Shown here: piece after piece, positions 8,996-52,433 of the stretch
Layout: every line of letters starts with the position of its first letter
Numbering within the stretch: the first letter of the stretch is position 1
Source: Chitinophaga pinensis
GTDB taxonomy: Bacteria; Bacteroidota; Bacteroidia; NS11-12g; UBA955
Direction of reading: 5' to 3'
DNA: 64,000 nucleotides
NCBI GenBank assembly: GCA_945877575.1
Contig: CAMDUE010000009.1
Location: 7,173-71,172 of the forward strand
Program-made: the position numbers and the translations under genes
Notes under the pieces: model-generated
Seen by the model: the letters and a program-made list of their open reading frames with translations, nothing else
Database searches by the model: none
What the model was told of the DNA's origin: nothing

Positions 8996-9043
8996 CGGGT
9001 TTTGGGTTACGGGGATCGGGTTTCGGGTGACAGGGATCGGGGG
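8996..9043. repeat. G-rich spacer with at least 7 G3-5 tracts (GGG TTTT GGG TTAC GGGG ATC GGG TTTC GGG TGACA GGG ATC GGGGG) between the convergent crtB and radA stops; G-quadruplex motif and an imperfect direct repeat AC(R)GGGATCGGG
   Basis: Read directly from the sequence. It exactly fills the gap between the two stop codons. Confidence 0.7.
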
Positions 9044-15449: not shown

Positions 15450-15641
15450 ATGAAAAAATTCACTTTCGCTTTGGCAGCATGTGCAGCTTTCGCTTTCGCT
15501 GCTTGTGGAAACAACAACACTGAAGAGACTCCAGCAGTAGATTCTCCTGCAGTTGAAGAAACTGTAGCACCTGACACTACTACTGACACAGCTACTACTG
15601 ACACAGCTGTAGCTCCTGCAACTGAAGAGGCTGCTAAGTAA
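15450..15641 (+). CDS. Small acidic Thr/Ala/Pro-rich lipoprotein (63 aa)
   Basis: Signal peptide with a lipobox-like AFAAC|G. The mature part is low-complexity (TEETPAVDSPAVEETVAPDTTTDTATTDTAVAPATEEAAK). A strong intrinsic terminator follows directly. Confidence 0.45.
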   Translation: MKKFTFALAACAAFAFAACGNNNTEETPAVDSPAVEETVAPDTTTDTATTDTAVAPATEEAAK

Positions 15642-15663
15642 TCCACAAAATTTAGAAAAAAGG

Positions 15664-15693
15664 AAAGGCACTTGTAAAAGTGCCTTTTTTTTT
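15664..15693 (+). terminator. Rho-independent terminator (AGGCACT-tgtaaa-AGTGCCT followed by T9)
   Basis: A perfect 7-bp stem plus a U-run about 25 nt after the stop of the 63-aa ORF. Confidence 0.8.
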
Positions 15694-39545: not shown

Positions 39546-40667
39546 ATGAAATTTATAGCTTCTTCAAGCGACTTGCTTCAGCACCTTCTCACAGTAAATG
39601 GTGCCATCATGTCTAAACCCATCATCCCTATTTTGGAGAACTTTTTGTTCGATATTCACGGGGGTGAGTTGACCATATTCAGTACCGATTTGGAAACGAG
39701 TATGACAACGGCGTTAAAGGTAGAAGCCAATGATGATATTCGTATTGCCGTTCCAAGTAAGATGGTCATTGACATTTTGCGCTCTTTGCCTGATAGTCCG
39801 GTGACATTCAATATAGATACTACCACCTTTTCAATTGAGGTAATTTCAAGCAATGGACGTTACAAGATGGCTGGTCAAGACGGAACAGAATTTCCTTCTT
39901 TGCCTGAGAAAAGTGGCGAAGGTAGTTTTAGCATGCCTGCCAGCATTTTGTTGAGAGCGGTTAGTAAAACACTTTTTGCAGCAGGAACTGATGAGTTGCG
40001 TTTGAATTTGACGGGTTTGTTCGTAGAAATGAAGAATGACCACGTGAATTTTGTCGCTACAGATGCCAATAAATTGGTTTGTTTTACAAGAAAAGATATC
40101 TCTCCAAATGTTGATCATTCTTTCATCATTCCTAAGAAGCCTTTGAATCTATTGAAAACAGCTCTTCCTAATGATGAAACGCCAGTAGTAGTAGATTACA
40201 ACAAGGCGAATGTATTCTTTAATTTTGGAGATACTCAATTGATTTGCAGATTGTTGGATGAAAAATATCCTGACTATTCAGCGGTAATCCCAAAAAACAA
40301 TCCGAACATTTTGATCATCAATCGTATGGACTTTTTAAGCTCCATCAACCGTATATCTATTTTTGCATCCAAAACTACCCATCAAGTACGTTTGAAAGTG
40401 GTTGGAAGTGAATTGACCATATCTGCCGAAGATATAGAAATGGCCAATGAAGCAACCGAAAAAATCGCTTGTGAATACAACGGTGATGACATGGAAATTG
40501 GCTTCAATGCCCGTTTCTTGAAGGAAATGTTATCAACCCTTGATGGCGAGAGCATTCAACTTCAATTGTCACAACCAAACAGAGCTGGACTTTTAGTACC
40601 AACTGGCAAAGATGGGTCAGAGGAGATCACTATGTTGATCATGCCTATGATGCTGAATAATTATTGA
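39546..40667 (+). CDS. dnaN: DNA polymerase III beta sliding clamp
   Basis: Three-domain clamp; the N-terminus MKFIASSSDLLQHLLTVNGAI… is typical of DnaN. No dnaA is adjacent. Confidence 0.9.
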   Translation: MKFIASSSDLLQHLLTVNGAIMSKPIIPILENFLFDIHGGELTIFSTDLETSMTTALKVEANDDIRIAVPSKMVIDILRSLPDSPVTFNIDTTTFSIEVISSNGRYKMAGQDGTEFPSLPEKSGEGSFSMPASILLRAVSKTLFAAGTDELRLNLTGLFVEMKNDHVNFVATDANKLVCFTRKDISPNVDHSFIIPKKPLNLLKTALPNDETPVVVDYNKANVFFNFGDTQLICRLLDEKYPDYSAVIPKNNPNILIINRMDFLSSINRISIFASKTTHQVRLKVVGSELTISAEDIEMANEATEKIACEYNGDDMEIGFNARFLKEMLSTLDGESIQLQLSQPNRAGLLVPTGKDGSEEITMLIMPMMLNNY

Positions 40668-40833
40668 TTGGTACCGAGTACCGGGTAGCTGGTAATTGGT
40701 AGAGGGTAGAGGGTAGAGGGTAGAGGGTAGAGGGTAGAGGGTAGAGGGTTGCAGGAACTGCAGACCACGGACTATGGACCAACTACCATGTACCATGTAC
40801 TATCTACCAAAGTCTACCAAAGTCTACCAAAGT
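40668..40833. repeat. Composite tandem-repeat array between the convergent dnaN and yggS stops: GGTAC-rich leader, (GGTAGAG)x7 at 40698-40746, degenerate RGACYAY-type heptamers (…CAGACCACGGACTATGGACC…), then (CTACCAAAGT)x3 at 40804-40833
   Basis: Counted directly in the sequence. The array abuts both stop codons. The GGG-TAGA-GGG periodicity is a G-quadruplex motif. Confidence 0.9.
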
Positions 40834-41499
40834 CTAAACGAAAACCGCCGTGCCCACTCTTACGAACGTAGATCCGTGTTCGATGGCTATGTGGTAATCA
40901 CTGCTCATACCAATTGATAGTTCACAGAAAGCGGGTGAGTCATTGAAGATGTTTTCCTTGGCGTCAATGAATAATTTCTGTATCAATGAGAATTCATTGG
41001 AGATTTGAACGGTGTCATCGGTGAGTGAAGCCATGCCCATCAGTCCGCAGATTTGAATGTTCAACAATGAGGCTTTTTCGGCGTTGAATTCAGACCAAAA
41101 TTGGGGCAAATGTGCGGGAGGAATTCCAAATTTGCTATCTTCCTGGGCGACATGAAGTTGAATTAATACGTTGATGATTCTATTGTTTGCCGCAGCTTGT
41201 TTGTTGATTTCTTTAAGTAGTTTTATTGAATCTACGGAGTGAATCATTTCAATGAACGGCGCAATATATTTGACTTTGTTGGTTTGAAGGTGGCCTATTA
41301 AATGCCATTCAATGTCAGTAGGAAGTTGCTCTCTGCGCTCAAGGAGTGCTTGGACTCTGTTCTCTGCGAAAATTCTTTGTCCGGAGTTGTAGGCTTCCTG
41401 GATTTCTTGGATTTCACGGTACTTGGAGACGACAATGAGCTGTGTGCTTTTAGGCAATTGTTTCTTGATTTGATCGATGTTTTCTGCTATGCGACTCAT
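40834..41499 (-). CDS. yggS: YggS-family pyridoxal-phosphate homeostasis protein
   Basis: LIVVSKYREIQ…FAENRVQ…WHLIGHLQTNK signature. Confidence 0.85.
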   Translation of the reverse strand: MSRIAENIDQIKKQLPKSTQLIVVSKYREIQEIQEAYNSGQRIFAENRVQALLERREQLPTDIEWHLIGHLQTNKVKYIAPFIEMIHSVDSIKLLKEINKQAAANNRIINVLIQLHVAQEDSKFGIPPAHLPQFWSEFNAEKASLLNIQICGLMGMASLTDDTVQISNEFSLIQKLFIDAKENIFNDSPAFCELSIGMSSDYHIAIEHGSTFVRVGTAVFV

Positions 41500-47925: not shown

Positions 47926-48013
47926 GGTACTTGGTCTTTGGTACTAGGTACAGGGTACTTGGCGGTAGCCGGTACCCTCTACCCGCTACCCGGTACCAAG
48001 TACCTCTATCTAA
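47926..48013. repeat. Heptamer-periodic repeat (locus B): (GGTACTT/GGTCTTT/GGTACTA/GGTACAG/GGTACTT) followed by GCCGGTA CCCTCTA CCCGCTA CCCGGTA…, the reverse complement of the GGTAG(A/C)G family
   Basis: Seen in the sequence. It lies between the ftcD stop and the 5' end of the T9SS gene and overlaps the ftcD stop codon. Confidence 0.8.
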
Positions 48014-49691
48014 GCTCCGCTTCAATTTTATTAGCAATTTCATCGCATTCACGGTGATTTTTTGCAAGTAAATCTTCAGCTTGTTTTACAATGTTTTCAG
48101 CAAACGTGCGATCAGATAGTCCTTTGGCGTTAGTCAATACATTGAAAAAAGCACCTCTTACAGCGGTTTTGATGCAAATGACGCCAACAGCTACATCGCT
48201 CATGCTGTTGGGATTGCCAATTTCAGACATTTCTTTGAGTAACGGTAGACAGTTATAAGCGGCTTCCATGGTTCTAAATGGAATCATGGTGGCGTATTGA
48301 CTGGCTTTTTCTACGGCCTCTTTGCGCGCTGTTTTTTGTTCATCGGTGTCTTTTGGAAGTTGAAATGCGGCCATGATTCCGTCAAATGCACGAGTATCTT
48401 CATCAACAAGATGCAGCAGTTGGTCTTTGAGTTTTTGTCCTTTTTCTGCCCAGGGCGAGAAATCATTTACGCTATCTTCCCAACCTCTTTTGATGGCGCT
48501 TCCGTTTGCTACCATGGTTCCTAGTGCGGCACCGAGGGCACCAGAAAGCGCCGCTATACTTCCTCCGCCAGGAGCAACAGAATCGCTGGCCGTTTCATTA
48601 GTGAAGGCCTTTACGCTCATGGAAACAAGGCGTTCTTGGGCCAAATCTTTCAAGAGATATTCAATGATTCTGGTTTTGGGGTCAAATTGGCTCAATTCAT
48701 TTAATCCCATACTTTTGATGGCCATATCCACCAAGGTTTGCTCGTCAACACCGCTGCTCATGCCTTGTTTTTCTAGGAAATATTTGCCTGCATCGAGTAT
48801 GGGTTGCAAAGGTACAAGTCCAACCAATTCGCTGCCTGTTACTCTAACGCCGCGTTCGTCAGCTGATTTGCATGTTTCTTCAAAAACAACGTGAAGGGGA
48901 GTTTCTCTGAAATTGGTGAGATTGATGCTGATTTGAGCAATGCCGTACTCTTCAATATACCAACCAATGGCTTTGACGTATTTTAGCTTTCCGGGGATGC
49001 GGACATCCTCGCCGTTTTGGTCTTTGACGATTTTTCCAACGAAGGGATTTCCTTCTCGGAGGACTCTTCCAGCTTCGCGGATGTCAAAGGCTATTCGGTT
49101 GGCTATGCGAGTGCTTTTGCTGTTGAGGTTTACGTTGTATGCAATTAAAAAGTCTCTAGCGCCTATGACCGTTGCGCCTGCTTTGGCATTCATTTTTGAT
49201 GGACCAAAATCAGGTTTCCATTGCGGTTCTTGAATTTTATCGAAAAATCCTTCGTATTCACCTGAACGAATCACACTAAGGTTGGAACGTGTTTTATTGG
49301 TTTGAGCCTCTTCATATAAATATACCGGAATTTGAAGATTATTGCCGACTCTTTCAGCGAGTTTTTTGGCATATTCAGCGGTTTCTTCCATGCTGATGCC
49401 TGAAATGGGTATCAAAGGACAGACATCGGTGGCACCCATTCTAGGATGTTCGCCGCTGTGTTGCGACATATCAATAACTTGGGATGCGCATTCAATTCCA
49501 CGGTAAGCGGCTTCTATCACAGCATCGGGTTCACCAACGAAGGTAACTACCGTTCGGTTGGTGGCTTTTCCTGGATCTACGTTTAATAATTTTATCCCTT
49601 CAACTGATTCAATAGCATCAGTAATTTGCTTGATAATCTGAGGGTTTCTGCCTTCACTAAAATTAGGAACGCACTCAATATTTTTTTGCAT
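48006..49691 (-). CDS. ftcD: Bifunctional glutamate formimidoyltransferase / formimidoyltetrahydrofolate cyclodeaminase
   Basis: N-terminal MQKNIECVPNFSEGRN is the classic formiminotransferase start; a C-terminal cyclodeaminase domain follows. The real ATG is at 49691. Confidence 0.85.
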   Translation of the reverse strand: MQKNIECVPNFSEGRNPQIIKQITDAIESVEGIKLLNVDPGKATNRTVVTFVGEPDAVIEAAYRGIECASQVIDMSQHSGEHPRMGATDVCPLIPISGISMEETAEYAKKLAERVGNNLQIPVYLYEEAQTNKTRSNLSVIRSGEYEGFFDKIQEPQWKPDFGPSKMNAKAGATVIGARDFLIAYNVNLNSKSTRIANRIAFDIREAGRVLREGNPFVGKIVKDQNGEDVRIPGKLKYVKAIGWYIEEYGIAQISINLTNFRETPLHVVFEETCKSADERGVRVTGSELVGLVPLQPILDAGKYFLEKQGMSSGVDEQTLVDMAIKSMGLNELSQFDPKTRIIEYLLKDLAQERLVSMSVKAFTNETASDSVAPGGGSIAALSGALGAALGTMVANGSAIKRGWEDSVNDFSPWAEKGQKLKDQLLHLVDEDTRAFDGIMAAFQLPKDTDEQKTARKEAVEKASQYATMIPFRTMEAAYNCLPLLKEMSEIGNPNSMSDVAVGVICIKTAVRGAFFNVLTNAKGLSDRTFAENIVKQAEDLLAKNHRECDEIANKIEAELR

Positions 49692-52226: not shown

Positions 52227-52433
52227 TACCAGGTGCCTGGTACTTGGAAGCTGGTAGGGGGTAGGGGGTAGGGGGTAGGGGGTGACCACAGACTACGGAC
52301 TATGGACTATGGACCACGGACCACGGACCACGGACCACGGACTATGGACTATGGACCACAGACCACAGACCACAGACCACAGACCACAGACTACAGACCA
52401 CGGACTACAGACCATGGACCACAGACCAATATC
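52227..52433. repeat. Heptamer tandem array (locus C) filling the gap between the convergent ychF and E1 stops: GGTAC leader, (GGTAGGG)x4 at 52253-52280, then about 21 consecutive heptamers A[CT][AG]GAC[CT] (GGACCAC / GGACTAT / AGACCAC variants)
   Basis: Counted directly. The strict 7-bp register holds over about 180 bp. GGGGG-TA-GGGGG x4 is a canonical G4 motif. Confidence 0.9.

Follow-up and report, generated by a model that had tools for sequence, protein, structure and literature searches.

The junction between dnaN and yggS in a 64,000-nucleotide stretch of DNA from an uncultured freshwater Bacteroidia lineage (contig CAMDUE010000009.1; this whole 64-kb stretch is called the window hereafter) is occupied by an array of short tandem repeats. 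The dnaN gene, encoding the DNA polymerase III beta clamp, lies on the + strand (39546-40667; Pfam beta-clamp domains; TIGR00663 at 261 bits against a cut-off of 138), and yggS, encoding a YggS-family pyridoxal phosphate-binding protein, lies on the - strand (40834-41499; PF01168; TIGR00044 at 170 bits against a cut-off of 106). The two genes converge, and the 166 bp between their stop codons, read directly, are repeat throughout and non-coding, in agreement with the original prediction. The TGA stop codon of dnaN stands 2 nt upstream of a left, G-rich arm of 11 RGTNNNN heptads in a single register (40670-40746, + strand: GGTACCG, AGTACCG, GGTAGCT, GGTAATT and seven copies of GGTAGAG), whose unit junctions create GGG every 7 nt and so a G3N4 motif. 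The first 13 nt of this arm (40670-40682) form a small proximal hairpin, GGTAC-CGA-GTACC, which is predicted in RNA folds of both strands and is kept in all conspecific alleles, with the minor variant GGTATCGAGTACC. A 20-nt centre follows (40747-40766), GGTTGCAG-GAA-CTGCAGACC, a GC hairpin whose 8-bp stem has one bulge and is capped by a GAA loop. The element has its symmetry point in this centre, which also forms the apex of the predicted fold and is identical in all seven alleles. The right arm comprises six heptads that end in ACC or ACT on the + strand (40767-40808: ACGGACT, ATGGACC, AACTACC, ATGTACC, ATGTACT, ATCTACC) and that read as RGTNNNN heptads on the - strand.

Between the right arm and yggS lies a 10-nt tandem tail (40809-40836, - strand), composed of two copies of AAAGTCTACC followed by AAAGT and CTA and detected by Tandem Repeats Finder; alleles carry two or three copies. 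On the - strand the tail reads as TAG ACTTTGG repeated, so that the yggS stop codon itself belongs to the repeat unit, and it does not merely extend up to that codon as first described. Read from 40803 to 40836, the same strand carries three copies of TAG ACTTTGG and then a final TAG, which places TAG in all three frames past yggS. Tandem Repeats Finder reports GGTAGAG at 7.4 copies (40698-40749, 100% matches, score 104), in accord with the seven copies counted originally, and TCTACCAAAG at 3.4 copies (40803-40836, 100% matches, score 68). RGACYAY heptamers, which the original prediction had listed, are present in two copies only (40762 and 40769), the other units of the right arm being of the NNNNACC/ACT type. 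A 59-aa open reading frame (ORF) on the - strand (40617-40796) sits in the repeat and was rejected as a small gene; integron attC sites were rejected on anatomy, and CRISPR because the units are contiguous and 7-10 nt long, as against repeats of 24-48 nt separated by unique spacers. The dnaN-yggS element consists of two heptad arrays in inverted orientation, and each of them begins at the stop codon of the gene that it follows. Both this arrangement round a conserved hairpin and the existence of the class in the literature (PMC4692102, PMC4679880) had been overlooked.

Three further arrays lie in the window; together with the dnaN-yggS array (locus D) they are designated locus A (8996-9043), locus B (47926-48005) and locus C (52227-52433). 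Locus A is a one-armed, G-rich array on the + strand (GGGTTTT, GGGTTAC, GGGGATC, GGGTTTC, GGGTGAC, AGGGATC, GGGGGTT) that takes up all of the spacer separating radA from a convergent phytoene/squalene-synthase-like gene. Locus C is a two-armed array centred on GGTGACC, with eight left heptads, including four copies of GGTAGGG, and about 21 GACCACR/GACTAYR units, and it occupies the whole space between the convergent genes for ychF and a 2-oxoacid dehydrogenase E1. Locus B, also two-armed and centred on GGCGGTAGCC, lies outside the convergent gaps, immediately after the ftcD stop codon (48006-48008, - strand) and directly before a secreted-protein gene on the same strand. The window has 16 matches to GGTN4GGTN4GGTN4GGT, where shuffles predict 0.00, and all 16 are confined to three loci (40684-40749, 47926-48004 and 52253-52385); (GGTANNG)2 occurs 12 times against 0.01 expected. 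The arrays begin at stop codons or within a few nucleotides of them, and three of the four loci occupy convergent gaps.

The arrays share a vocabulary of units. GGTTTCG is found in alleles of all four loci, and GGTGCCG, GGTAGCG, GGTACCG, GGTACTT and GGTAGAG each occur in at least two loci. When unit types were tabulated in a register anchored on the flanks and not on unit content, 40 of the 43 distinct unit types had G at heptad position 2 and 38 had T at position 3, and positions 4-7 were free. A block reported as verbatim common to loci D and C is indeed shared, at a length of 17 nt (GACCACGGACTATGGAC, at 40763 and 52333) instead of 18, the 18-mer being confined to the dnaN-yggS locus; GGTACTTGG, which had been named as a further sub-block here, is common to loci B and C and absent from locus D. 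Four loci that keep the same 7-nt register and share unit types support the proposal that the arrays form a dispersed family, related by descent or produced by one generating mechanism. Independent expansion at each locus would not give such a species-specific shared vocabulary, as had been argued from the start, although ordinary copy-number slippage in situ, which that argument had set aside, does occur.

Metagenome contigs of the same species show how readily the arrays change: all four loci vary in unit number and type. The seven alleles of locus D have gaps of 152, 163, 166, 198, 226 and 364 bp (the last with a run of N), in which the centre and both array ends are fixed in all alleles and the arms are extensively rearranged: GGTAGAG is present in four to seven copies, blocks of GGTTTCG, GGTGCCG and GGTGTCG are gained or lost, the right arm has from 6 to at least 12 heptads, and the 10-mer is present in two to three copies. 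In every allele the 7-nt register is unbroken between the dnaN stop codon and the centre. One allele (L001) is identical to the window over all 1122 nt of dnaN, yet has five copies of GGTAGAG against seven; the other alleles differ at 17-27 nt of dnaN. Locus B spans 107-321 bp between fixed anchors, with changes of unit number and type in both arms; the gaps at locus C are 95, 116, 207 and 221 bp, differ by multiples of 7 and retain the GGTGACC centre; and those at locus A are 34-62 bp, with unit number and type again differing among alleles. The arms change by steps of 7 or 14 nt (the tail by 10 nt), far faster than the flanking genes change by point substitution. An assembly artefact was rejected, since the arrays are present in ENA, JGI, Logan and NCBI assemblies. 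Runs of N or contig ends fall inside the arrays of L003 (loci D and B), L004 and L259, which indicates that the repeats fragment the assemblies of this lineage.

It is highly probable, given this allelic series, that the element is a hypermutable inverted pair of heptanucleotide long simple sequence repeats (SSRs) with slippage dynamics. Units would be gained and lost by slipped-strand mispairing during replication or repair, and ectopic conversion or another form of interlocus exchange, or else a shared constraint, may keep the vocabulary species-specific. Slippage and homogenisation would thus keep regenerating arrays at gene 3' ends, where they are presumably harmless, with termination or 3'-end protection as a by-product or under weak selection. 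The part of this interpretation towards which we lean only slightly is that the arrays are for the most part non-adaptive and survive at the 3' ends of genes because they do no harm there.

Several observations weigh against so neutral a reading. The RGT core is conserved, which slippage alone does not predict. Eight of the 11 convergent gene pairs in the window have a spacer of at most 7 bp or overlap, and all three convergent junctions with a spacer of more than 7 bp are arrays, whereas none of the divergent, promoter-bearing gaps of the window (468, 352 and 280 bp) contains one. Most spacers in the window are shorter than 30 bp, yet arrays of 100-300 bp persist. Gap-free alleles of locus D fold better on the + strand than shuffled sequences do (z -3.1 to -6.9). 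Loci B and C are occupied in both sister species despite complete turnover of the units, which suggests selection or an active process. Finally, we infer interlocus exchange from the shared vocabulary alone.

Comparison with related genomes places the origin of the arrays within a small clade. Synteny around dnaN is conserved in relatives. Canonical terminators of the A-tract/hairpin/T-tract type occupy the dnaN-yggS spacer in three of them: L247 (DnaN 82% identical at the amino acid level; spacer of 48 bp), L387 (79%; 93 bp) and L248 (76%; 51 bp). In L386 (DnaN 82% identical) an extra 191-aa ORF, followed by a hairpin and a T-run, intervenes; this ORF (L386 10288-10863, between dnaN and yggS) has no Pfam match and also has a hairpin plus T-run ahead of it. 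In L250 (74%) dnaN and yggS overlap by 4 bp. The sister species (L388, L390), whose DnaN is 98% identical (dnaN 89% at the nucleotide level), likewise has a 4-bp gene overlap and no array. Intergenic arrays of at least three GGT-phased units are absent from syntenic segments of about 19-21 kb in the relatives with 74-82% identity, and the few three-unit GGT-phased matches there lie inside called genes. Loci B (174-195 bp) and C (180 bp; L391 5102-5281) are nonetheless arrays in the sister species too, built of GGTGATC, GGTTATC, GGTCAGT, GCTCTCA/GCTGAGA and GGTCTTT; those at locus C, GGTCTTT and GCTGAGA/GCTGATG, are wholly unlike those of the window. Thus, the arrays are a feature of a small clade in which unit content is fully replaced between species, and the array between dnaN and yggS is specific to the window species and dispensable at that position in the sister species.

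The ancestral terminator may have supplied the seed of the dnaN-yggS array. The terminator of L247, ACAGAGGGTTGCCGTTTGGTAACCCTTTTTT, shares the 10-nt sequence AGAGGGTTGC with the junction between the last GGTAGAG and the central hairpin, a match length reached in only 13 of 5000 shuffles, and an AGAGGGT unit adjoins GGGTTGC in that relative's terminator. This shared sequence suggests that AGAGGGT may have expanded in place from the foot of the ancestral terminator stem. In the slippage interpretation the array would have been seeded from the 5' flank and stem of a bidirectional intrinsic terminator, an origin to which the sequence comparison lends moderate support. Locus B must have arisen otherwise: in relatives the corresponding genes have a TAATG stop/start overlap with no spacer, so the array there did not grow from a terminator.

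The predicted fold of the region is a long imperfect hairpin in RNA of either strand (-65.2 kcal/mol, z -4.2, for the + strand; -52.9 kcal/mol, z -3.5, for the - strand), and single-stranded DNA folds as well (-29.4 kcal/mol, z -4.5); the gap-free alleles all fold likewise, with z of -1.4 to -6.2 on the - strand. In the predicted fold GGUAG pairs periodically with CUACC, as a zipper interrupted by internal loops, so both convergent transcripts and single-stranded DNA may form a long imperfect GGU:ACC zipper hairpin. The centre has the GC stem-loop of an intrinsic terminator and lacks the A-tract and T-tract; a consensus terminator scan (38-54 kb) found no T-tract terminator at 40668-40833, 47926-48005 or 52227-52433, and reading the letters directly leads to the same result. 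No Rfam family matched anywhere in the 64-kb window at the gathering threshold, and a strict hairpin and T-run scan past 53 gene ends gave no match under its strict criteria. A small lipoprotein-like gene elsewhere in the window (15451-15690), which contains a 15-nt coding tandem repeat (15577-15608), is followed by a canonical hairpin and T9 terminator (GGCACTT-GTAAA-AGTGCC, TTTTTTTTT), and the organism does, then, use ordinary terminators elsewhere.

Such folds raise the possibility that the array is a selected 3'-end element that has replaced the A-tract/hairpin/T-tract terminator: a bidirectional terminator independent of a U-tract, an insulator against convergent transcription or a 3' stabiliser, in which the arms would lengthen the GC hairpin at the centre and so give each mRNA a long terminal stem-loop. 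We consider this doubtful, though deserving of real weight. The array occupies the position of the relatives' canonical terminator and its centre shares AGAGGGTTGC with one of them; the GC hairpin with its GAA loop is present in all alleles, and a similar GGCGGC-GAA-GCCGCC is found at the centre of locus B in the sister species; the predicted hairpins on both strands are significant in nearly all alleles; and the conserved RGT:ACY core, the siting at or near stop codons with three of four loci in convergent gaps, the persistence in a compact genome and the absence from promoter gaps are all as such an element would have them. Set against this are the lack of a U-tract, the overlapping dnaN and yggS genes of the sister species and L250, and the spacers of at most 7 bp at eight of the 11 convergent pairs of the window. 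At locus B the array lies within a gene pair that in relatives is coupled and operon-like, and it leaves no space for a promoter beyond it, so transcription has to pass through the array. The arm lengths are independent (8 versus 21 units at locus C), locus A has a single arm, and a good fold z-score is automatic for inverted arrays; a test for balanced arms gave no sign of selection for a fully paired stem, as arm lengths vary independently among alleles. In the slippage interpretation the array is counted as not a strong terminator, because locus B lies between co-directional genes, the arms are unbalanced and locus A is one-armed, and as not required, because the sister species overlaps dnaN and yggS yet has arrays at loci B and C. 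A more elaborate version, in which heptad zipper palindromes, with RGU arms paired to ACY arms about a GC hairpin, evolved in this streamlined clade as a U-tract-free replacement of A/U-tract terminators that stops or insulates convergent transcription, and acquired a vocabulary concerted across loci through a trans-acting, heptad-recognising factor or a templated or conversion system and not through plain slippage, appears improbable.

The quadruplex motif proposed in the original prediction can be read from the letters, and at locus D it is real but one-sided, belonging to the dnaN-sense strand alone as a candidate structure. At least four consecutive G3 tracts with short loops are present on the + strand, where the window allele has 8 runs of at least G3 and the alleles have 6-18; the - strand has none in any allele. 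A G-quadruplex (G4) of (GGGTAGA)n in DNA or RNA might pause polymerases or recruit G4-binding proteins, as has been proposed for GGGAATC and GGGGAYT repeats (PMC4692102). In favour of such a role, the 6-18 runs have 4-nt loops in every allele, GGTAGAG never falls below four copies, locus A is built of GGGNNNN units including GGGGATC, and the analogous repeats form G4 in vitro, with four units favoured (PMC4692102). It is nevertheless very improbable: the - strand of locus D has no run of at least G3, the right arms of loci C and D carry GG only, it is RGT and not GGG that is conserved across arms, the complementary arm would compete through duplex or hairpin formation, and the model repeats, too, are without a function found (PMC4692102). 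Nor is the G-rich strand tied to the direction of replication. GC skew is positive (0.06-0.15) in every 8-kb bin, which places the window on one replichore; on either strand the 5' arm is the G-rich one, so G-richness follows the local direction of the genes.

The presence of the array in one species and its absence from the other at dnaN-yggS could also reflect insertion of a mobile palindromic element at gene ends, with the heptad arrays inside it. Repetitive extragenic palindromes (REPs) and the bacterial interspersed mosaic elements (BIMEs) of enterobacteria are dispersed, species-specific, imperfectly palindromic and extragenic, and are often found at 3' ends and in the gaps of convergent gene pairs. 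REPs, which have a conserved GTAG, consist of one palindrome of about 35 nt instead of tandem heptads and are linked to transposases (REP-associated tyrosine transposases, RAYTs). The arrays resemble these elements in being dispersed, species-specific, imperfectly palindromic, extragenic and sited at 3' ends and in convergent gaps, and a REP/BIME-like element or one like a miniature inverted-repeat transposable element (MITE) would account for the appearance of locus B as an insertion exactly at the TAATG stop/start junction, for ends that look like terminal inverted repeats (GGTACTTGG...CCAAGTACC at locus B, for example) and for a block, GGTGCYTGGTACTTGG, that locus C has in common with alleles of locus B. 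They differ in consisting of tandem heptads and in having no RAYT domain in the annotated neighbourhoods. At loci D and B no target-site duplication is visible when the junctions are compared with those of relatives; no full-length copy is common to any two loci; no transposase or RAYT domain was found among the Pfam-annotated genes at about 1-11 kb, at 29.5-56 kb and in the 10 kb beyond the window start; and the 10-nt match to a relative's terminator favours an origin in situ at locus D. This explanation, too, is very improbable.

Another explanation for the conserved core is a trans-acting protein that reads RGU or RGT at a 7-nt spacing, in RNA or single-stranded DNA, and that sets the vocabulary of each species. 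It would fit an RGT core that is invariant while the other four positions are free, a vocabulary that is common to loci within a species and different between sister species, and a strain (JGI Ga0480408_0000065) in which loci B, C and D all have units of a CGGGT class, which the window strain has at none of the three. Unit classes are heterogeneous within a single array, however, locus A keeps GGG and not GGT, and the putative binder is purely inferential; we give this explanation the least credence of all.

The slippage interpretation is consistent with the class to which the element belongs. G-rich heptameric repeats, GGGAATC in Xanthomonas and GGGGA(C/T)T in Nostoc PCC 7120, are dispersed, mostly intergenic and near stop codons on the sense strand, and vary strongly in length and sequence between close relatives (Rehm et al. 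2015; PMC4692102). Each Xanthomonas genome has 70-75 convergent inverted pairs of arrays, one array per strand and capable of forming a stem-loop; 11-16% only of these repeats lie in convergent gaps, G4 forms in vitro from GGGAATC/GGGGAYT-type repeats, and no function was found (PMC4692102). As relayed there, no long SSRs of bacteria are as over-represented as heptamers, an excess for which polymerase slippage has been proposed as the cause; heptanucleotides of Calothrix PCC 7601 are also cited. The arrays described here share with these repeats the tandem 7-nt units, dispersal, length variation, inverted pairs and G4 capability. They differ in an RGT core with four free positions and mixed unit types per array, in a conserved non-repeat GC hairpin at the centre, in one arm without G3 runs, in a low-GC (40%), uncultured Bacteroidia host with a compact genome (a close relative has a contig of about 2 Mb) and in favouring convergent gaps within the window; the units (GGGTAGA, GGTACCG and others) depart from the GGGNATC/GGGGAYT consensus, with GGGGATC in locus A only. 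Cyanobacterial short tandemly repeated repetitive (STRR) heptamers, reportedly described by Mazel et al. in 1990, are likewise heptanucleotide tandem arrays, many per genome, non-coding and polymorphic among strains, although they belong to another phylum, have other units and are mostly single-armed among the matches listed. Locus D has the properties of such an array: 7-nt tandem units, a non-coding position, dispersed loci that share units (four in 64 kb) and polymorphism among strains.

Heptamer arrays are also known in Bacteroidetes from the direct repeats of TAACTGA and other units in Beggiatoaceae, Cyanobacteria and five Bacteroidetes (MacGregor 2015; PMC4679880), where close relatives with the same neighbourhood have short repeat-free spacers and the arrays interrupt assemblies. 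Built of a single AT-rich unit, these arrays are found for the most part immediately ahead of start codons, in the forward direction, and were proposed to be translational regulators (PMC4679880). The arrays of the window are alike in occurring as heptamers in Bacteroidetes, in the repeat-free spacers of relatives and in the assembly breaks, and unlike in that theirs stand ahead of start codons and have one AT-rich unit. Bidirectional intrinsic terminators provide a further comparison: the position is that of the terminators in L247, L248 and L387 and there is a central GC hairpin with mutually pairing flanks, but the A- and T-tracts are lacking, with heptad arrays, 60-150 nt long or longer, as the flanks. 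The dnaN-yggS array belongs to the known heptameric long-SSR class (STRR/GGGNATC), from whose G-rich members it differs in host lineage, RGT core and central hairpin.

Searches beyond the lineage found similar units in many taxa. A pattern scan for (GGTANNG)4 in one genome per species gave at least 120 matches; the matches listed do not include the source species and come from Cyanobacteria (especially Nostocales, many of whose arrays have GGTAATG- and GGTATTG-like units), Acidobacteria, Chloroflexi and others, and from several metagenome-assembled genomes of Saprospiraceae/Chitinophagales. Among the matches listed, a complementary arm lies near 7 of 99 cross-taxon arrays, with the G-arm and C-arm orders at 5 versus 2 (not significant), and crude ORF context revealed no preference of orientation (18 versus 18). 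A scan of viral contigs with six GGTN4 units returned unrelated sequences among the matches listed, the pattern being too unspecific. A metagenome scan with GGGTTTCGGGTTTCGGGT returned at least 120 loci (L261-L380 among them), and none of the loci listed matched the window by megablast; among the matches listed, 57 of 80 contigs came from one sample (Ga0307489), and of four JGI loci that were read, two mix GGGTTTC with telomere-type TTTAGGG and appear eukaryotic and unrelated.

Locus B adjoins the start of the secreted-protein gene, which encodes about 314-317 aa (window 47926-48043, - strand). The start of this gene is ATGCACCATAAA in L004-L006, and the same ATG is AAGTACCAT in the window, L001 and L002, in which no stop codon interrupts the frame across the array as far as an ATG within ftcD (48043); gene callers consequently assign the gene 354 aa. 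Because steps of 7 nt shift the reading frame, the array at locus B could switch the start or the N-terminus of the secreted protein.

Dispersed heptameric repeats date as a recognised class from the cyanobacterial STRRs. Neither the reason for a 7-nt unit nor any function has been established for them (PMC4692102), and the lineage described here is an unusually clean natural experiment on such arrays. Its compact genome makes the arrays nearly the only long 3' spacers, and many conspecific alleles are already available in public metagenomes; the sister species lacks the dnaN-yggS array and has orthologous arrays with another vocabulary, whereas distant relatives keep the canonical terminator. 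The substitution of terminators by arrays, and a trans-acting factor behind the concerted vocabulary, are now directly testable. In practical terms, the arrays could serve as variable number tandem repeat (VNTR) markers for strain typing of this freshwater group, and they account for the contig breaks and runs of N in the assemblies of the group. The value of the locus resides in the combination of an allelic series with a contrast between sister species, which bears on what heptameric arrays do.

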